Part shown: piece after piece, positions 16,831-26,288 of the stretch
Layout of the letters: the number at the start of each line of letters is the position of its first letter
Numbering within the stretch: the first letter of the stretch is position 1
Source of the DNA: a virus
Lineage: Duplodnaviria > Caudoviricetes
Strand: one strand, 5' to 3'
Virus record (IMG/VR): IMGVR_UViG_3300020045_000481
Span: 1 to 26,288 of that record
DNA: 26,288 nucleotides
Program-made: the position numbers and the translations under genes
The notes under the pieces: generated by a model
Told to the model about the DNA's origin: nothing
What the model saw: the letters and a program-made list of their open reading frames with translations, nothing else
The model's database searches: none

Positions 16831-17340
16831 CTATTGCACTCTATTGCCTTTCCGCAGATTTTCTTCGGCGGAAAGATATTGCAAATTCCAAGGTACGTGA
16901 AGGCCACAAACGCCATTTCCACGCAAAGGAACAATGTGGTCAACATGAGACCCACTTGGTTTGTTCTTGTAAATCCTTGTCGTTTCCAACATAAATTTCT
17001 TCGCTATCTGCTGGCTTCCAATGCCGCGACTCCTAAGGGAATGATGGGCTTTTGCGGACGCCAACCGACGGTCTTTATTGGCAAGTTGCCAAGCCTTGTC
17101 TAACTCCTTGCACCTATCAATATTATTTTTGCGCCACTCTTTCGATATTTCCCTGTGCTTGGCCGCGTACTTGCTTTTGTCGCGCCCAACACCGTTTTTC
17201 TCGTACCAAAGTCTTTGAAGCTTTGCCTTGCACTGAACGCAACGACCGCTTTTTACAAACCTTATGCCAGCATGGCCGACATCACGCCGGCACGCCTTGC
17301 CAGAGAATGTTGCTGCCTTATCTTTTCGATCAGTTTTCAT
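16831..17340 (-). CDS. free-standing HNH (homing-type) endonuclease
   Basis: [35 protein letters not shown]; N-terminal C...H...CxxC Zn motif; Lys/Arg-rich linker. Confidence 0.92.
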
Positions 17341-17715: not shown

Positions 17716-20307
17716 TCATAACGCCACACCGCTCTGTGCGGCCATGGCGCGGATAAGCTGGTTCAGGCGGGCTTGGGAGGGGAAGTCGCTAACCAACGCC
17801 AGTGATTTAAACTGCCCGCCAAAGAACAGCGATGTGCCTGCTCGCGCCCCTACATATAGCGTGCTGTTGGCATAGTTGCCGTCAGAATCACCATTGAGAG
17901 TTTGTGTGCTGCCTGTGGTGAGATTAATCTGCGGGAACGTCTGTTGAGCCGTCCCGAGCGTCCTGTCATACCGTGCAGCAGCAATGAAGTAGGCGTTATC
18001 GGTAAATGTTGCCGTACTCTCGGCCTGGTTCAGCACCGCTCCAGTTTTCCCGTTTGTCGGGCTGATCTTTCGAGTGCCATTTATGATCGGCAATGAAAAG
18101 CCGCTGGCACCAGAAGTATTTGTGGTGTACTCAAGGATTTGCTGAATCGAACCAATCTGGGCAGTTCTTATAACGGCTACCACGGTAAGTTTATTCAAGC
18201 CGCTCAGGTCAATTGCAGAACTAAGAGAGAAAGCAGACGCATCAAACAGCACCTGCTGACTCCCCACGATCTGCGCGGGCTTCGCGCCGGTGCTGTTGAT
18301 CGTCACCGTAGCAGCATTCGAACTGGATTCGGTGAAGGTTGTAGCGCCTTCGGGGACGGCGGTGAAGTTGGCATCGAATACCTTTGTCCCGGCGATGCCG
18401 TTGAACAACTGCCAGCGGTAGCGCTTGGCCTGAAGTCCGTTCGTTACCCCGTTTAACTCGCCAGTCGCCAACATTCCGGATGTGAGTAGGTTTTCATTGG
18501 CCGCAGCCGTCTGAGCCGTTCCAATTTCCGTCCACGTCCCTGCAAGCGTGTCCGCGTTATAGTCATCGGAGTAGAAAAAGCGCACGGCGCCAGTCGCCTT
18601 AACGCGAGTGACCCTTATCCAATGTCGCGTGTTATCTGTGAACCCTGTGGCGGCAGACGAGTTGACTACAACCGATCCACTTGTGGCGTAATTTCCGCCG
18701 AAGGCTATACCCCCGCCTGTGCGCACGTTGATGTACCAGCTACCAGTCCATTTGGAGCAAACATTTCCCTCGGTCCCAGGCGTCCAATCAATGGCAGCGA
18801 GGTCGTAGCGAATATCAATATCGCCTGCGATTTGATTGGCCGCCGCATCTGGACTGGTGGCGTTGTTGGACGCGCCAGCGTGTGGTGGAGTCCACAAGTA
18901 ATTCACCCCCGCATACGGACAGTTGTGAACCACAAATGGCACACCGAGCGTCTTGGTGTCGCTGGTAAAGTCCCAAACTTCGCCTTTGTATTGCTCGCGC
19001 CAAATCTTGGTTATCGGGACGTAGAAGTTCTTTTCGTCATCAAACCACTTGCGCTGAGTCCGTTCTGTGCGGGACGCGCCATTGAGTAGTATTTCAACGT
19101 CCTCGCCATTCGCACCGATGTAGAAGCACTCCCGCCCATCTTTCCTGACTTGGTGGTTTATGGTTGCCGGGACACCCAACTTCATAAAGGCATGCATCAT
19201 CCCGCCGACGACAGCCTCTGAAACCGTCGAAATACGCAGGAGAACGCCCTTCTTCCTGACTATGCAGCCATCCCCACTCGCGTATGCCTTGACGAACTCA
19301 CGAAGCACTGGAACCGGGGAATTGAGAACAAAGTCAGGCACGCGCTTGTTATGCGCCCCCGAGCCGAAGAAGCTCTCTACGCATCGGGCAAAGGCCGCTC
19401 CAGTCACATAGAGGCTGCAAGCGTTCTTGCCTTTAGGCTTCTGGATGCTGGCACTGCACTTCATGCGCCGCTCCAGAATTTCCTCTAGTTTCTTGGCAAT
19501 GTGCAGCTCGTCGCCACAAAGACTGAACACAAGGCCGGTAATGCGTTTTTTGGTGTCCCTGGAGAAATGCCCCTCGGCAAGCCACCAACCAAGAACAAAG
19601 GCCATTTCCTCATCAAAAAGGAAGCTGTCACCCGTCTTGTTTGAATAGTTGCTGGTCGTCTTGGCAATGCTCAGTGTCTGATACTCACTTGGCAGAACAG
19701 GCTTTGGCAGCAACATATAGTCGCCAACCCTCAGCTTATCTGCGTCAGTCCATTGGGCTCTAAGGTCACGGACGAATCCACGCCCGCCGTTCCTATTCCG
19801 CTTGCGGTTCTCCGGCTCGTATGGCTTGCCGTGCTTGTTCTCGTACCTGTTTTTGCGGTCGTTGTAGAGTTGAATGCGCCGACCATCCACCCTCAAAACC
19901 TTATGCTCTGGCGTCAGCCCAACAGGCAGGCAACCGCGAGCCGTGAACCAAACAGCACTCCCTTCAAACGGGGTAGTCCACTTGGCAAGCACGGGCTTAT
20001 AGGTTCCGTCGCACTGGAATACATCCTCACCATCCAAGGAATCCTTAACCCGCTTGAATCCGGACTTGAACAGCATCCGAGTTTCAGGCAAGAAGCACAG
20101 GATCGGCTGCGCCGCCGCCGTGGCTTGGGCCAGCGAATTAGACCCTTTTATTGGTGCCCATGCAGAAACTCGCTCAGTAGCCGTTCCTTGCGAAATCCCA
20201 TAATTGGCCTGCCAATATTGCGTTACCCACGGCAACTGCCACGGCTGACGAACAGACGGCATAAATGCCACTCTGTTGCCAATATTGACGCCTATTCCGT
20301 TTTGCAT
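17716..20307 (-). CDS. putative virion fibre / LamG(ConA)-like protein precursor containing an intein (863 aa; 471 aa after splicing)
   Basis: Exteins are Thr/Gly/Ala/Asn-rich beta-sandwich-like sequence (DIDIRYDLAAIDWTP, RHWIRVTR, TLYVGARAG..LFFGGQF); residues 71-462 are an intein. Confidence 0.8.
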   Translation of the reverse strand: MQNGIGVNIGNRVAFMPSVRQPWQLPWVTQYWQANYGISQGTATERVSAWAPIKGSNSLAQATAAAQPILCFLPETRMLFKSGFKRVKDSLDGEDVFQCDGTYKPVLAKWTTPFEGSAVWFTARGCLPVGLTPEHKVLRVDGRRIQLYNDRKNRYENKHGKPYEPENRKRNRNGGRGFVRDLRAQWTDADKLRVGDYMLLPKPVLPSEYQTLSIAKTTSNYSNKTGDSFLFDEEMAFVLGWWLAEGHFSRDTKKRITGLVFSLCGDELHIAKKLEEILERRMKCSASIQKPKGKNACSLYVTGAAFARCVESFFGSGAHNKRVPDFVLNSPVPVLREFVKAYASGDGCIVRKKGVLLRISTVSEAVVGGMMHAFMKLGVPATINHQVRKDGRECFYIGANGEDVEILLNGASRTERTQRKWFDDEKNFYVPITKIWREQYKGEVWDFTSDTKTLGVPFVVHNCPYAGVNYLWTPPHAGASNNATSPDAAANQIAGDIDIRYDLAAIDWTPGTEGNVCSKWTGSWYINVRTGGGIAFGGNYATSGSVVVNSSAATGFTDNTRHWIRVTRVKATGAVRFFYSDDYNADTLAGTWTEIGTAQTAAANENLLTSGMLATGELNGVTNGLQAKRYRWQLFNGIAGTKVFDANFTAVPEGATTFTESSSNAATVTINSTGAKPAQIVGSQQVLFDASAFSLSSAIDLSGLNKLTVVAVIRTAQIGSIQQILEYTTNTSGASGFSLPIINGTRKISPTNGKTGAVLNQAESTATFTDNAYFIAAARYDRTLGTAQQTFPQINLTTGSTQTLNGDSDGNYANSTLYVGARAGTSLFFGGQFKSLALVSDFPSQARLNQLIRAMAAQSGVAL
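18922..20097 (-). mobile_element. intein with LAGLIDADG homing endonuclease (392 aa)
   Basis: Block A CFLPETRML, block B LTPEHKV, block C FVLGWWLAEG, block E FVKAYASGDG, block F YKGEVWDF, block G VVHN followed by +1 Cys. Confidence 0.95.
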
Positions 20308-20309
20308 TA

Positions 20310-20621
20310 TCAGTCCTGCATTGGTTTAGCGTAGACAGACCCGCCAGCGGAAATCTGGATTGCAGAAACGCGCCATTTGCTTGCCCCTGCCCCAGCAGGA
20401 TCAGGAACCATAATTTCAACTGGCGTATAGGCTGGGATTGGCGTTGAACCAGTAGTTGCCGTAACTCCATTGCCAACAGAAATGTAGGCATCCGTGGTTG
20501 TCCACACTAATACCTTATTTGGCCCATACGTCCAGCCAGTCAGACTGCCAGCAGTTCCGGTGTAGGTTGTCGTCTGCGCGGCAAACGAAGCATCTTTGCA
20601 GGGGTTTAGTGCGAGCGGCAT
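20310..20621 (-). CDS. small beta-rich virion protein (possible fibre base/adaptor)
   Basis: 103 aa Thr/Gly-rich; TAATG-coupled to portal; 2 nt upstream of fibre-like gene. Confidence 0.65.
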   Translation of the reverse strand: MPLALNPCKDASFAAQTTTYTGTAGSLTGWTYGPNKVLVWTTTDAYISVGNGVTATTGSTPIPAYTPVEIMVPDPAGAGASKWRVSAIQISAGGSVYAKPMQD

Positions 20622-22834
20622 TACATGACTCCTAGTGACGCCTGTTCAGGCGATACGGGTTGAAAGTGCTGCTCTCCACGTTCAAGCGAGCGGGGTTCCT
20701 CGTCCTCAAGCGATGGAGAAGATAGAATTTGATTGATTGTCTGTTGCAATACCGCATTTGTTCCATCAGGCCCAGCGGATTTTGCCAAGGCATCAAGCAG
20801 CGCCTTGATCCGCGTTGTGTTCGCGTTGTAGGCGTCCACATCAGCCTTGAAGTGCTCGTTCATCACGCGGTTTTTCTCATTCTCGGCCTGCTGCGCTTCG
20901 ATGGACTTCTGGATGTTTTGCAGCATCCCCTGCATCGCCTGATTCATCTGCGAGGATTCCTCAAGCTGCTTCTTCAGCGCAGCAACACGAGGCGTATCCT
21001 CAGCGCCTTCGCCTGCCTCAAGGATTTCTGGCGGGACAGTCGCACGCAGGCGCTTGGACATTTCCTGCGCACCAGGCCAGTCCATATTCTTCACCAGCAG
21101 ATCGCCAACGATTTTCCATAGCTCTGGACTGGTCTGGATGAGCAACCCCATATTTTCGACCGCCTCTTGGCGGCGAGTGGCGTATCCGGGGCCGGTGGAC
21201 ACAGCAACGTCATATTTACCGACGTTCAGATTGTAGATTTTTTTGATTGCCGCGCCAGTTTTCTGATCCTTGATCGAAATAACCGCTTCTTTCTGATCTG
21301 GATTCAACTGAACGTGCGAAGTGTCCCCATCCAGCCCGATAATTCGAGCAATCCGTGGCGTATCGTAAATTTTCGGAATCAGATCAATCAAAATCCGAGT
21401 GCCATAGCGCAGCGATGCGCCAAAATTGTCGTGGAAATGGAAAGTTCCGGTATCAGACTGCTTTTCTCTGGCAAACAGGGCTTTCCCAGACTCGTCCCCG
21501 CGTGACATGCCAAGGGAAGCATCATACTGGCCTGTGGTTGCCTTGATGTCGTCCCCAGCGCCCATTTTGGCCTGGATAAGCCCATTCTGAGGAAGCGGTG
21601 GCGCTACTCGTTGTGGCGCTGGAACAAGCTGGTCGCCCTCAACAACAGCGTTATATTCAAGGTACGGCCAATTCTGAATGTTTGCCGTTTTCCACTGCGT
21701 TTCAAACCCCTCAAACTGCCCTGCAACGCCGACATACGGCGCTTTTGGAGCCAACGCAAGCATTTCCGCTTCTTGCGAAGTCCAATAATTCTTCATCCGT
21801 TGCGCATCTTTGGCATTTCTCACAATGCCAGAGATATAAACGCGCCCCTCAACCTCGTACTTATTGCCCAACACGCGAACAACTGGAATGTATTTCCCGG
21901 CCCAATCCTTTTTCTCAAGGATTTCATTACCGTTCAGCTTGCACCACTTGACCGACTTGATTTCAGTCTTGCGTTCGCGTTTGGGAACCATGCCATAAGC
22001 TTGCGCAAGCCCATGCTCCTTGCTGCCCTTCAGCGCAGTCACCCCCCCGTCATACTCAAGCAGCGTTTCTTCCTTGCTTTCAATGTAGAAATATTCAGCT
22101 ACACGAACGGATTTGGTTGAAAGCCATGCCTGCATCCCCTGATCGCCAACAGCCTGCGGCCCCCACTGCGTAACCGGCGTCTTATCGGGGTACTGATGCT
22201 CAAATTCTTCTTCCGTCAAGTCCTGCGAAATCAGGCACCACTGCGCATCTGACCCGCATGGGTCTTGTGCAGTCGGGTCAAGATGAACAGAAAAGAAATT
22301 CTCAATCCGTTGCAGCCTGATTTCCTGATCGAAACTCAACGGATTGTCGTACTCGGTGATGTAGCGCCAATACCCTTCGCCACAGCCAACCTGATTCTGA
22401 CAGGCAGTGTTATAGACAACATCGGAGTCGCTGATGTACTCGATGTGCCGTACCAGCCCCTCAAAAACTTCGGCAATCTCAACGGATGCCCCATCATTGA
22501 CCGGAATAACCTTCCCGCTCGGCCTGTCCTGTCTCTGCTGATTGGTAATTTGCAACACATGCTGCGGCAGGACATTGATCGTCAGCGTAGGCCGCGCATT
22601 AATGGTTGACCCGTTCCCGGTCGAGCGAGAAGTCAAAACTTCCTGCGGCCACTGCCACTGATTATCCGGCGACCCAGCCAGAAATTTCAGGTCGTCCAAC
22701 TCGTCATCGCGGGAATTGTCGTAAGCTTCCATCGCCATTTGCAGGCGCTTTTTTGCCGTCGCAAGAATATTGGCATCCTCTTTCGAGGTTCCGTTGGCAA
22801 CGCCTGCCGCGCCTACCATACCATTATCGGCCAT
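20621..22834 (-). CDS. portal protein, P22 gp1 family
   Basis: 737 aa; 'DDLKFLAG...QW', 'RPTLTIN', 'GIVRNAKDAQRMKNYW', 'GKYDVAVSTGPGYATRRQEA'; C-terminal coiled-coil barrel. Confidence 0.95.
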   Translation of the reverse strand: MADNGMVGAAGVANGTSKEDANILATAKKRLQMAMEAYDNSRDDELDDLKFLAGSPDNQWQWPQEVLTSRSTGNGSTINARPTLTINVLPQHVLQITNQQRQDRPSGKVIPVNDGASVEIAEVFEGLVRHIEYISDSDVVYNTACQNQVGCGEGYWRYITEYDNPLSFDQEIRLQRIENFFSVHLDPTAQDPCGSDAQWCLISQDLTEEEFEHQYPDKTPVTQWGPQAVGDQGMQAWLSTKSVRVAEYFYIESKEETLLEYDGGVTALKGSKEHGLAQAYGMVPKRERKTEIKSVKWCKLNGNEILEKKDWAGKYIPVVRVLGNKYEVEGRVYISGIVRNAKDAQRMKNYWTSQEAEMLALAPKAPYVGVAGQFEGFETQWKTANIQNWPYLEYNAVVEGDQLVPAPQRVAPPLPQNGLIQAKMGAGDDIKATTGQYDASLGMSRGDESGKALFAREKQSDTGTFHFHDNFGASLRYGTRILIDLIPKIYDTPRIARIIGLDGDTSHVQLNPDQKEAVISIKDQKTGAAIKKIYNLNVGKYDVAVSTGPGYATRRQEAVENMGLLIQTSPELWKIVGDLLVKNMDWPGAQEMSKRLRATVPPEILEAGEGAEDTPRVAALKKQLEESSQMNQAMQGMLQNIQKSIEAQQAENEKNRVMNEHFKADVDAYNANTTRIKALLDALAKSAGPDGTNAVLQQTINQILSSPSLEDEEPRSLERGEQHFQPVSPEQASLGVM

Positions 22835-22946
22835 GTTTCATTTCCCTGAACGCGGCCTGACACGCCACATAAATTATCGTTCTCACCATGCCGCGAGCCT
22901 TCAGGTGCGCCAAGGCTTCCTGCGCGTTCTTTGGGTATTTATTCAC
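22824..22946 (-). CDS. possible 40-aa ORF (MNKYPKNAQEALAHLKARG...) between TerL and portal
   Basis: GTG start overlaps TerL stop (GTGA); ends 11 nt into portal gene; fills the gap. Confidence 0.35.
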   Translation of the reverse strand: MNKYPKNAQEALAHLKARGMVRTIIYVACQAAFREMKHGR

Positions 22947-24316
22947 GATGCCATCCACGAAGTAGCCGTATAAGCGCCCATATTACCCCCGCCGCGATTA
23001 CGCCGCTCCTGCGCTGCTTTTTTCTTCTCGGCTTTAATCACGCCGGGGAATAATTCAGTCACGCCCCATACAAACGCATCAGCACGGTTAGGCGAACGCT
23101 CTCCAACATATCCGGTCGTTGTGAACGCGCACAGTTCTTCTTCCAGCGCCACAAACCGACCGCATAGCCTTATCTTCCCCTGCTCGTGCAGCGCAGAAAT
23201 CGGCTCCGCACGAATCACCTTCCCACGCGATGCCGTAATCTTCTTGAATTTAACCGACACACCTTCTTTAGCTGCCGCCGACTCAACTACATAGCGAACC
23301 ATATCCCCGCCGTAGTTCGCCTCTCCAACAATAATATCGGCCATGTGGCGTTCGTAAGCCTTCACCGCCACAACACCCCATGTCTGCGGCCCACCCTTGA
23401 CGGTCAAATCTTCCAGCATGTACGCCCGACCGTCCACCCCAAGCCCAACCACGGCAATCCCAATCTCATCGTTCTCTTTGTTATCTTCCTCAGACGCTCC
23501 AGACGGGTCAACTGAAATTACAATCCGCTGCATGTCCGGCAATTCCTCATCACCATCGGTGCGGTATTTATCAATCAGTTCTTCCGTCCACAGCGCCCCC
23601 GGCGCAACCTCCCCATATTCGCCTTCAAGGAATCGGCGCTTCATCCGGCCCGACTGGTTTTCCAACTCGCGTATGTAATCCCCCGCCAGATTCTCCACAT
23701 TATCCCGAGGATTAATCTTCACCACCCCATACATATGCGCGTCCTGCAACGGCTGCTTCGACTCAGGCTCTCGCTTCTGGTAGAAAACCTGATACGCCCA
23801 ATGCGCCTTCGACGGCGGGTTGCAGTCGTAGTACATCTTCAGCGGCAACACCACACGCTGACCCTTGTACTCATACTCGCATTTCTGCGCCAAGCGCGTC
23901 AGCGCCAGATTCCGCGCCGACCACGAAATCTGCGAACACTCATTCAACAGAATCGTCGCAAATTCCTTACCCAAAATCTTTTCAGTGCGCTCTTTATCAT
24001 CCAACCCCCCCAGCCAAATCTCAGACCCATTCGGCAGGTAAAAAACCCAATCCCCCTTATGCAGCTTGTATTCCACCCCAGGGAAACACTTCTCAAACAC
24101 GCTCGGCAAGGTATCCATCCCAACCGATTCCTTCACATGCTTGAACTTGAACCGCAAAATCGCGTGCCGAGATTTTGGCGCTTTCAGTGCCCGAGCCACA
24201 ATCTGCCTGCATTCCAGAAACGTCTTGCCAGAACGCGACCCCCCATCCAAGAGAATGTGCTTCACGTCACTGGACATCAGCAACCGCGCTTCCTCCTGTT
24301 TCGGCGTCAGCTTCAT
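22943..24316 (-). CDS. terL: terminase large subunit
   Basis: 'LTPKQ' adenine-binding motif, Walker A GGSRSGKT, Walker B variant ILLNE, coupling motif DCNPP, nuclease ISVDP...GEANYGG...SPNRADA. Confidence 0.95.
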   Translation of the reverse strand: MKLTPKQEEARLLMSSDVKHILLDGGSRSGKTFLECRQIVARALKAPKSRHAILRFKFKHVKESVGMDTLPSVFEKCFPGVEYKLHKGDWVFYLPNGSEIWLGGLDDKERTEKILGKEFATILLNECSQISWSARNLALTRLAQKCEYEYKGQRVVLPLKMYYDCNPPSKAHWAYQVFYQKREPESKQPLQDAHMYGVVKINPRDNVENLAGDYIRELENQSGRMKRRFLEGEYGEVAPGALWTEELIDKYRTDGDEELPDMQRIVISVDPSGASEEDNKENDEIGIAVVGLGVDGRAYMLEDLTVKGGPQTWGVVAVKAYERHMADIIVGEANYGGDMVRYVVESAAAKEGVSVKFKKITASRGKVIRAEPISALHEQGKIRLCGRFVALEEELCAFTTTGYVGERSPNRADAFVWGVTELFPGVIKAEKKKAAQERRNRGGGNMGAYTATSWMAS

Positions 24317-24567
24317 TGCAGCGTTGCCCCCGACTCGCTCGCAAATACCTCATTCGTGTCGCTGTCAACAAATGTAATTTTCCCACACTCCCCAGCGCAC
24401 TCAGCCGCGAACCATGCCGCGTTGTGGCACGTCACATCCCAAAATTCCGCGTCAATCAGCGGCGCGTTCGGGTGGACAAACGCCTGTGGATTCGTCGCCA
24501 TGAACCGCAGCACACGCGAATACACCTCGTTCTGCTCGTCGGTCCAGCGGTCCGGTGTGTCGCTCAT
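24313..24567 (-). CDS. hypothetical acidic protein (84 aa)
   Basis: ATGA overlaps with both flanking genes. Confidence 0.65.
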   Translation of the reverse strand: MSDTPDRWTDEQNEVYSRVLRFMATNPQAFVHPNAPLIDAEFWDVTCHNAAWFAAECAGECGKITFVDSDTNEVFASESGATLQ

Positions 24568-25055
24568 GCCTTCGCATCAACATCATCAAACGTAATCGTC
24601 ACACTCCCCTTCACCCGACCATCACCCACCGAAAACAACCCCTCAGCCTTCGCCAAATTCTCCATCGCCTTGTTCTGATCCGAATGCGTCAACAACTCAT
24701 CCGATACCTCAACCCTCGCCTTCCTCCACCAACCATCCAGCAACCTCTCATGCCTCAATACCTTCCGATCCCCCAGCGCATCACGATACCGCTCACTCAA
24801 CTTCTCGTCCGACTTGATCCACGCCGATAACATCGGCCAGTCCAACCCCTCCTGCTCTACAAACTCCTCCACCGACTTCCCACCCACCAACTCACCCACC
24901 AAATACCGGATCGAACACTCCACCTCATCCATCCCCAACAACTCACCATCCGTCGCTCCACCAGCCTTCGCCTCCCCACGCGCAATGCCACCAACCTCCC
25001 GTTGCCACTCCACCAACCTCACAACCCTCTGCGCCCAATTGATCCGGTTAGACAC
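24564..25055 (-). CDS. terminase small subunit-like protein A
   Basis: HTH-like LVGGKSVEEFVEQEGLDWPMLSAWI...ERYRDAL; C-terminal KAMENLAKAEGLF...SVTITFDD resembling TerS tails; upstream of TerL. Confidence 0.65.
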   Translation of the reverse strand: MSNRINWAQRVVRLVEWQREVGGIARGEAKAGGATDGELLGMDEVECSIRYLVGELVGGKSVEEFVEQEGLDWPMLSAWIKSDEKLSERYRDALGDRKVLRHERLLDGWWRKARVEVSDELLTHSDQNKAMENLAKAEGLFSVGDGRVKGSVTITFDDVDAKA

Positions 25056-25132
25056 GCGGCCCCCAGCAGTTAAATAACCACATAATCAAAAACGCTACCA
25101 ACAAATATCCCACCAATCCCACAACCGCACCC

Positions 25133-25183
25133 GTCAGTGAACACTCACGCACCCCTTCTATCCAATTCTTACACCACTGTCAA
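25133..25183 (-). promoter_or_regulatory. sigma70-type promoter for terminase/late operon with operator-like palindrome at the start site
   Basis: Minus strand TTGACA (25183-25178), 17-nt spacer, TAGAAG (25160-25155), then GTGAGTGTTCACTGAC (25148-25133). Confidence 0.6.
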
Positions 25184-25304
25184 TCCACCCCACACTGTCG
25201 AGATTACAACTAGCCCAAAGTTGGGAATGTAAAAAATGGGGAACTCAGTACCCGCCCCCCATGCTGGCGATCCGGGCATACCCCCCCTATCGGCGGCATG
25301 GCGT

Positions 25305-25347
25305 GTTAGTGAGCGCAAACCCACGTACCCAGCGAGCGCCCACTAAC
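25305..25347. repeat. 12-bp inverted repeat GTTAGTGAGCGC / GCGCCCACTAAC (1 mismatch, 19-nt spacer)
   Basis: Read directly at 25305-25316 and 25336-25347. Confidence 0.75.
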
Positions 25348-25413
25348 ATTGACGAGCGACCGGCCCGAGGCATGCCCGGCCTGACCCTGACGGATGCATG
25401 CCATGCCCCCGAG

Positions 25414-25597
25414 CAGGCCCAGCGCAGGCCGGACAGCACATGCGCCAGGAATGGCAGCGCGGCTTCACTACAGGCCCTACAAGCCTCGATCAGCGCCAGG
25501 CCATGCCATCGCACCATGCCGGCAGGTCAATCGCGCACAGGCCGTTTAAGCGCGTCGGCAGGTTCGGGCGCGCCTAGGGCCGGCTCAAGTACAGGCC
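25414..25597 (+). repeat. six co-oriented CAGGCC hexamers
   Basis: Copies start at 25414, 25425, 25471, 25497, 25538, 25592. Confidence 0.6.
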
Positions 25598-25833
25598 AGG
25601 GCCAGCGTGGTGGCAATACTTCATGTTGAGGGGTTTGTTATAAGGGCGTTATGAGAGAGAGCTTGAGAGTGATGTGGTGGAGGCTGTGGAGGCCGTCTTT
25701 TTGGAGGGGTGGGTGGCCGTTGTTGGACAAAAGTGCGCAGCCTTGTTTTTGGCCGTTTTTTGAGTGGAGGTGCAGGCTAGTTGGGAGGTGGCCTTGGTTG
25801 TATGCGATTGTTTGGTTTGACTGGAGGTAGGTG

Positions 25834-26288
25834 GTGAATGCTGTAGCGACGACGGATGAGAGGTCTGAGTTGCGGGAGGTGGTGAAGTCCACGAGGGCGG
25901 AGTGGAGGGAGAGGTTATCGCTGGCGAGCAAGGTATCGCCGGACTCGAAGTTGGGGAAGAGGGTTGGGGTGTTGTTGCTGGATTTGGAGTTGTTGGAGGA
26001 GCGGATAGCGGAGGTTGGTGGTGAGGAGGAGTTGGTATTTGTGATTTGTGCGCAGGTGGCGAGTGGGGTGACGTTGACGGATTGGTGTGAGCACTATGTG
26101 ATTGAGAGGGGGTTGGTGTGGGCGTTTTTGACGGAGACGCCGGAGCGGTTTGAGAGGTATCAGAGGGCGTTGAGGGGAATAGCGGACGGGTATGTGGAGG
26201 AGACGGTGGGGATAGCTCGTGGGGCGACGGACGACACGCTGGAGGTAAATAAATTTCAGGCCAAGACGTTGATGGATGTGGCGCGGGT
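25834..26288 (+). CDS. terminase small subunit-like protein B (Sf6 gp1-like), 3' end outside window; not in ORF track
   Basis: GGAGG RBS 25823-25827, GTG start, open to window end: ...VICAQVASGVTLTDWCEHYVIERGLVWAFLTETPERFERYQRALRGIADGYVEETVGIARGATDDTLEVNKFQAKTLMDVAR. Confidence 0.75.
   Translation, partial: MNAVATTDERSELREVVKSTRAEWRERLSLASKVSPDSKLGKRVGVLLLDLELLEERIAEVGGEEELVFVICAQVASGVTLTDWCEHYVIERGLVWAFLTETPERFERYQRALRGIADGYVEETVGIARGATDDTLEVNKFQAKTLMDVAR

Follow-up and report, generated by a model that had tools for sequence, protein, structure and literature searches.

Mirror-image G/C strand skew at a likely packaging-start region between two small-terminase-like genes of a P22-like podophage

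The locus and its strand skew

The window analyzed here is the whole of virus record IMGVR_UViG_3300020045_000481 (26,288 nt; Duplodnaviria, Caudoviricetes), whose contig terminates inside a gene for a small terminase subunit (TerS)-like protein. This gene and a second TerS-like gene lie head to head across a 775-nt gap, and within the gap an extreme G/C strand skew changes sign. Judged by its genes, the window is a fragment of a P22-like podophage. Pfam and PHROG scans place on the − strand an operon of P22-like type with head, ejection, tail, and lysis genes; its members include terL (terminase large subunit, TerL), portal, scaffold, P22-type coat, head closure, endolysin, and spanin. The features around the skew are the following.

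20621..22834, − strand: P22-like portal gene; third-position skew 0.21, the tail of the gradient
22943..24316, − strand: terL; third-position skew 0.53, decaying
24313..24567, − strand: gene for an 84-amino-acid (aa) protein of unknown function; four-fold sites 26 G versus 3 C; one homologue at 64%
24564..25055, − strand: left TerS-like gene, encoding 163 aa and opening the head operon; third-position skew 0.86
25056..25200, − strand: left non-coding flank; outward (−) strand G/T-rich, with 11 G versus 58 C on the + strand in 25060-25200
25237..25287, − strand: candidate packaging start, a G-run element (G7-TA, 35 nt, TTCCCCA, then a T run) directed toward the left terS
25291..25625, no strand: unskewed GC-rich core in which the skew flips; 335 nt, 67% G+C
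25305..25347, no strand: TAGTG-type repeat, an imperfect inverted pair; related copies in the cores of relatives
25626..25830, + strand: right non-coding flank; outward (+) strand G/T-rich, with 85 G versus 21 C in 25630-25830; G-run element not seen
25831..26288, + strand: right TerS-like gene, cut by the contig end; PF20901 E 1.4e-8, PHROG 1482; third-position skew 0.86

An earlier note on this DNA described the + strand as nearly free of G to the left of the core and nearly free of C to its right, and its counts are exact (2 G in 24841-24900; 2 C in 25981-26040). The + strand GC skew is −0.63 over the left arm (24564-25055) and +0.59 over the right arm (25831-26288). It extends, as claimed, over the non-coding flanks, with −0.68 in 25060-25200 and +0.60 in 25630-25830; it is just weak in 25201-25290 and −0.04 in the core. 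Binomial p values are ~1e-32 to 1e-33 per arm, <1e-8 per flank, and 0.55 for the core. The arm and flank skews bear out that the outward-reading strand is G-rich on both sides of the core, and the inward strands of the two arms are nearly identical in composition (A 26, C 45, G 10-11, T 18-19%). Skew of this amplitude is not a property of the whole record: across 450 overlapping 400-nt windows in 1-22900, the range is only −0.30 to +0.15. The cumulative GC skew has its minimum at 25520.

Codon usage is insufficient to explain the bias, in agreement with the earlier note. When the same proteins were re-coded with the background codon usage of the phage (2000 draws each), the expected coding-strand third-position skew was 0.20 ± 0.08 and 0.19 ± 0.09, with a maximum of 0.53, versus 0.86 in both TerS-like genes; a codon or amino-acid effect as the cause is ruled out by this result. 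The bias also alters the TerS protein sequence, as the amino acids G, V, E, W, and D make up 0.44 and 0.39 of the two TerS-like proteins versus 0.29 in 8 unskewed Sf6-type TerS proteins. The skew is real and lies far beyond chance or codon usage.

Outward from the core, the bias decays over 3-5 kb. In successive 100-codon blocks of the left operon, third-position skew is 0.81, 0.95, 0.30, 0.59, 0.68, 0.42, 0.50, 0.31, and 0.30; beyond these nine blocks it scatters from 0 to 0.39 and is near or below zero past 5 kb. The 84-aa gene shows a dip to 0.30. The skew had been said to fade inside TerL; it does decay within this gene, but the portal gene is still skewed, and the baseline is reached only ~4.5-5.5 kb from the core. 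Decay of the right arm is not visible in the window, since the contig end cuts that arm. The full mirror coincides with the two head-to-head TerS-like genes.

Searches agree with the description of both flanking genes as TerS-like. The right gene is assigned to the Sf6-type TerS proteins by its match to PF20901 (Sf6-type small terminase; 35.2 bits, cut-off 27) and to PHROG 1482, and 19 homologues were found. The left gene itself has no Pfam, PHROG, or NCBIfam match. Its profile aligns with the right family (probability 94.7, E 6e-8); among 20 of its homologues scanned against PF20901, one (P0031) passes the cut-off and one falls below it; and Foldseek ranks 2, 3, 5, 6, and 9 for its model (pLDDT 78.6) are Sf6 TerS (gp1), with weak E values of ~1-2. 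On this evidence we call it TerS-like. The left gene precedes terL, with the 84-aa gene between them, and members of the right family are followed by terL in L082, L083, and L087, the three scanned relatives with enough DNA. The right gene of the window is a second TerS gene, directed away from the head operon. An inverted duplication of terS was considered and rejected: BLAST aligns the two proteins hardly at all, and the arms share only short inverted repeats of varying spacing, which indicates that the genes are not a recent inverted duplication. Our searches found no DNA context for the left family, and the right family was absent from the GTDB genomes and named phages searched. Ring assembly, pac binding, and stimulation of TerL would be expected of members of the PF20901 family. 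C-terminal tail types are common to members of both TerS families, which suggests tail swapping to match TerL; one TerS family pairs with three TerL types (L082:5954-8356, L083:3574-5864, and L087:9989-12038).

Skew in relatives and the link to packaging start

Comparison of homologous loci, which the earlier note had proposed as a check, showed that the pattern is shared by some relatives and that in these it starts at a G-run element located ahead of terS. The right family is represented by six loci; in five of them, the 150-200-nt bins over terS reach +0.5 to +0.6, and the sixth has just 260 nt of the gene. The same skewed arm is present in an unrelated Sf6-type family (L118, L219, and L220) found via a repeat search; the pattern therefore recurs in two TerS families. 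Most relatives have a single strong arm. An opposite lobe over the first leftward open reading frame (ORF) reaches 0.38 in L082, 0.53 in L083, and 0.44 in G001, and little or nothing of it is seen in G003, L085, and L086, the last two of which hold <900 nt upstream. A head-to-head terS pair was seen in no other locus examined, and the skew of the window (0.86) exceeds that of every relative (0.49-0.79). In the complete genome G001, terS and terL rank 1 and 3 of 39 genes by skew, rank 2 being a predicted ORF across the core, and the lowest and highest 400-nt skew bins flank this core. In G003, also complete, terS and terL rank 1 and 2 of 33 genes. Broad genome-wide skew tracks gene direction in both genomes.

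The bias follows position, not which gene sits there, because inserted genes that separate the core from terS share the skew. Namely, between the G-run element and terS, relatives carry an HTH gene with a skew of 0.78 and an HNH gene with 0.48. A second divergent gene pair in G001 is unskewed (0.13 and 0.13). L082 has HNH-like genes on both sides of terS (L082:5355-6954), of which the downstream one, between terS and terL, is far less skewed (0.14) than its neighbors (0.79 and 0.40), as expected of a newcomer gene. The TerL family is ruled out as the carrier of the skew: at 80 TerL-relative loci, the skew never rises above +0.3 in the three 300-nt bins that precede the TerL match. Weaker flips occur 2-3 kb upstream in L013 and L062. 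Among named records, the pattern is missing from 6 portal relatives and from 8 TerL relatives, including phiM5; C72C1 reaches +0.3 to +0.4, but its region is generally positive. P22 and Sf6 show no skew at terS, and 8 of 13 Sf6-type TerS hits, Sf6 included, are unskewed.

The left arm begins at the G-run/TA element, which is followed by a C run and then by an A or T run, and the same layout precedes terS in L118, L219, and L220. A pattern derived from the window and L118 retrieved 120 loci; the 80 with flanks represent 36 distinct contexts, 30 of them having 2.5 kb downstream. In 8 of the 36 contexts, one of which helped define the pattern, terL starts ≤1.5 kb downstream on the same strand, and in 1 it lies on the opposite side; several of the TerL queries were taken from the element loci themselves, after PHROG naming. 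One context sits between an HNH gene and terS-terL, the position at which HK97-type genome ends lie. phiM5 has a similar element, inside which its annotated terminal repeat stops, 17 nt past the beginning of the G run, 36 nt ahead of terL. The element thus resembles a packaging start and is a candidate cut site. It does not predict skew, since just one of the eight terL-linked contexts is strongly skewed, itself the one that helped define the pattern. The TAGTG repeat was likewise rejected as a predictor, mean skew being within ±0.07 over 121 loci. Repeats of this type occur in ~390 stored stretches (including viral contigs L091-L211), often in multiple copies.

The core shows little alignable similarity to the cores of relatives. 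Neither iterons nor an AT-rich unwinding element was found in it, only short two-copy repeats, and a structured RNA was rejected (no Rfam match to E 1; fold z −1.98 for 25240-25625).

The G/C skew pattern likely marks where DNA packaging starts. The earlier proposal of a polarity signal marking a pac or cos site holds as far as the link to the packaging-start region is concerned; a cos end is not indicated because the head genes are P22-like, and an oligomer signal that could be read out is not supported. The feature is real and lineage-restricted, belongs to phage packaging-start regions, and has in the window its most extreme and symmetric case.

Two further genes of the head operon deserve mention. 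The 863-aa gene at 17716-20307 (−), between portal and scaffold, has a LAGLIDADG domain, and its NCBIfam matches are confined to the intein parts of several models; it is likely an intein in an unidentified head-region protein. An Endonuclease VII/HNH-like gene lies at 16831-17340 (−).

Possible causes of the bias

In five genomes, the share of G at four-fold sites is 40-73%, up from 14-31%. Relative to the background of each genome, and with four of the five sharing one TerS family and hence not fully independent, the pooled odds ratios in the terS zone are 5.1 (four-fold sites) and 3.4 (two-fold sites) for G:A, 2.3 and 1.9 for T:C, and 2.7 for G:T. Over the first 300 terL codons, they are 3.2 and 1.6 for G:A, 1.2 and 1.2 for T:C, and 2.5 for G:T. 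The main effect is a gain of G, to which a loss of C is added near the core; in the 84-aa gene and the first 300 TerL codons, two-fold T:C equals the background (42 T of 90 versus 520 of 1153, p 0.83).

The explanation that we favor, with a probability of roughly 0.35, is that the skew is a footprint left by mutation as strands are opened or re-synthesized outward from the site of terminase cutting. Nicks or cuts made by terminase at the packaging start would repeatedly allow the outward-running strand to be displaced or re-made. The G-run element would be the cut site, and 3' ends made there could prime outward synthesis through recombination-dependent restart or the copying of terminal repeats. 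The outward strand would thereby gain or keep G and, nearest the core, lose C. The mirror would arise since both directions are used here, each arm carrying a terS. DNA-level handling at a fixed point is argued for by the smooth decay over gene borders, the cover of non-coding DNA, the matched composition of the arms, the shifted amino acids, the unskewed second divergent pair of G001, and the reversed polarity of a similar pattern in Pseudomonas phage PB1, described below. In ColE1, a mutation footprint decays over at least 1.3 kb from the priming site (PMC3167613).

Several observations weigh against this explanation. No genome end or cut site is mapped in any skewed phage, and all verified arm genes face outward, so that position and transcription are confounded. 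The right terS of the window is equally skewed and faces no G-run element, and skew is missing despite an element or a mapped start in phiM5, P22, Sf6, DSL-LC05, and seven of the eight element-plus-terL contexts. Two short G003 genes far from terS reach 0.64 and 0.74. The L219/L220 pair reveals no clear change in rate, with four-fold differences of 21/56 in terS, 37/159 in terL, 63/253 in portal, and 104/261 in primase. In a toy equilibrium model, the worst fit is that of deamination alone (chi2 ~60, 3 degrees of freedom, both zones), which was rejected on this ground and on the background level of T:C near TerL; better-fitting mutation models require 4-10-fold more C>G. In the TerS zone, the fit is as good or better with selection that favors G and disfavors C (chi2 10.4, 3 degrees of freedom; free selection 3.6, 2 degrees of freedom), and the TerL zone is fitted by no model (best chi2 14.6). 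Mutation models with extra transversions and the selection model are similar in fit; therefore, composition cannot separate mutation from selection.

Of the alternatives, selection through Rho polarity survives best, although we hold it unlikely. A C-poor, G-rich mRNA strand would protect leaders and poorly translated terminase genes from Rho, and transcripts entering the promoter/packaging core would be halted by the C-rich inward strand. Rho reads CC/UC dimers, and its avoidance shapes gene composition in Bacilli (PMC13323073, whose main text does not contain the word "phage"). The inward strands do have the composition of rut sites, with 45% C, 10-11% G, and 28 YC dimers per 100 nt versus 15 in the background, and the TerS zone can be fitted by a two-parameter rule "for G, against C." P22, Sf6, and PBR31, which have annotated Q-type antiterminators, are unskewed, as this model would have it. 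Yet so are several phages in which terS comes first after a gap. Moreover, the sense strand has T over A, unlike a purine bias, and the 96% G at A/G two-fold sites exceeds what avoidance needs. The model also presumes weak translation of terminase genes. Finally, the opposite-polarity arms of PB1 would, by analogy, suit handling of DNA ends better than an RNA rule.

A role of transcription-linked R-loops, one of the structures that the earlier note had raised, is rather improbable. Strong divergent promoters in the core would yield G-rich RNA that re-anneals to the template and aids terminase loading or priming, the displaced strand losing C near the start. In T4, the late sigma factor is linked to the loading of terminase (PMC3012670), and SPP1 pac overlaps late promoters and the start of gene 1 (PMC6316719). 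In the window, the two terS genes have a computed RNA:DNA minus DNA:DNA stability of −0.155 and −0.167 kcal/mol/step versus −0.075 ± 0.030, and all five R-loop-like sites lie at 23.4-26.0 kb, four on the outward arm strands and one in the core. The non-coding flanks, however, do not favor hybrids (−0.08), one background window reaches −0.164, and T over A disfavors hybrids. No promoter scored; a TTGACA hexamer lies on the − strand at 25178-25183, within the left flank, and no full sigma-70 promoter was found in this flank.

We consider it equally improbable that the core serves as a bidirectional replication origin, with the skew as a footprint of the leading strand or of a polymerase switch that has no relation to packaging. 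The flip has the polarity seen at origins, with the G-rich strand outward, and the cumulative minimum falls in the core; the extreme 400-nt bins of G001 flank its core, and in both G001 and G003 primase or helicase genes are found at a distance of 3-4 kb. The core is GC-rich and without iteron arrays, however, and the onset of the skew coincides with the pre-terS element. In addition, G003, L085, and L086 show little or no far lobe, and genome-wide skew in G001 and G003 follows gene direction, with no two-arm pattern independent of it.

The symmetry of the window, as opposed to the skew, could also reflect an assembly chimera or a recent recombinant of two one-armed phage modules joined at a shared core, which we regard as a long shot. 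The head-to-head pair is unique among the loci examined, the right family normally leads its own terL, the contig ends 458 nt into the right gene, and no read or contig bridges the core (one run with a share of 0.06, contigs only, 24200-26288 uncovered). But both arms have the same composition, their skew is above that of any relative, and weaker opposite lobes exist in L082, L083, and G001. A long shot, too, is the proposal that the two head-to-head small terminases share one packaging-start core from which DNA is packaged both ways, with the polarity set or read by terminase. If this were true, packaging start and direction would be readable from sequence alone in such phages.

The G-quadruplexes suggested in the earlier note did not materialize. 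The arms contain no canonical G3 motif; runs of three or more G number 21 versus 31 ± 3 and 20 versus 33 ± 3 in shuffles, and G4Hunter-type windows number 7 versus 73 and 14 versus 78, also not above synonymous shuffles. Polar words of the Chi/KOPS type fared no better: the best Chi-like word occurs 10 times versus 4.6 in skewed genes but 26 versus 12.5 in background genes, and KOPS-like words were 0. The depletion of G runs, together with the lack of any word enriched above background, rules both readings out. A selected diffuse polarity cue, with or without G-quadruplexes, that terminase reads to set packaging direction is very doubtful: its onset lies at the candidate cut site, its direction is that of terS-terL in two TerS families, and the fit of the selection models is compatible with it, but it lacks an enriched oligomer or G-quadruplex motif and is missing from most of the Sf6-type TerS hits.

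Known systems and significance

Headful packaging in P22, Sf6, and SPP1 (pacL-pacC-pacR) starts at terS, and the window resembles these systems in its P22-like portal, coat, and head-completion genes, its Sf6-type TerS, and its candidate start adjoining terS. It differs from P22 and Sf6 in being skewed at terS. In SPP1, where the strand is G-rich in general, gene 1 is preceded by only a short patch of high G (+0.45 over 300 nt and +0.72 over 100 nt); the 100-nt bin, L215:43801-43900, lies just before the cut site. None of the three has two head-to-head terS genes.

The outward G-rich strand at a fixed point recalls the GC skew of replication origins and the ColE1 Pol I footprint, the latter also in decaying over kilobases (PMC3167613). 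In contrast to both, the bias described here is local, reaches a silent-site amplitude of 0.86, surrounds a GC-rich core without iterons, and is anchored at a packaging-type element. PB1 has mirror skew arms around the non-coding centre of a long non-coding gap (computed profile +0.51, −0.04, −0.40; L216:4568-5511, corresponding to PB1 58.5-59.5 kb), but there the G-rich strand reads inward, and the arms span ~300 nt each of non-coding DNA only. In Pbunavirus, skew has been read as replication (PMC12390725). Composition driven by Rho, as in E. coli rut sites and the purine bias of Bacilli, likewise gives a C-poor sense strand and a C-rich, G-poor antisense strand; here, the bias is local and decaying rather than genome-wide and involves G and T, not G and A. 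In literature on GC skew or strand asymmetry at terminase genes, pac, packaging initiation, genome termini, and R-loops, covered mostly as titles and abstract starts, no such pattern was found.

It is poorly understood how small terminases locate the site where packaging begins and set its direction, and the genome ends of uncultured phages are usually unknown. The pattern is lineage-restricted, and among the records checked no skewed phage is cultured. In some lineages, a local strand bias that decays with distance from a pre-terS element would provide a sequence-only marker of the packaging start. The bias also implies a strand-specific process at the packaging start that has no description in the literature found.

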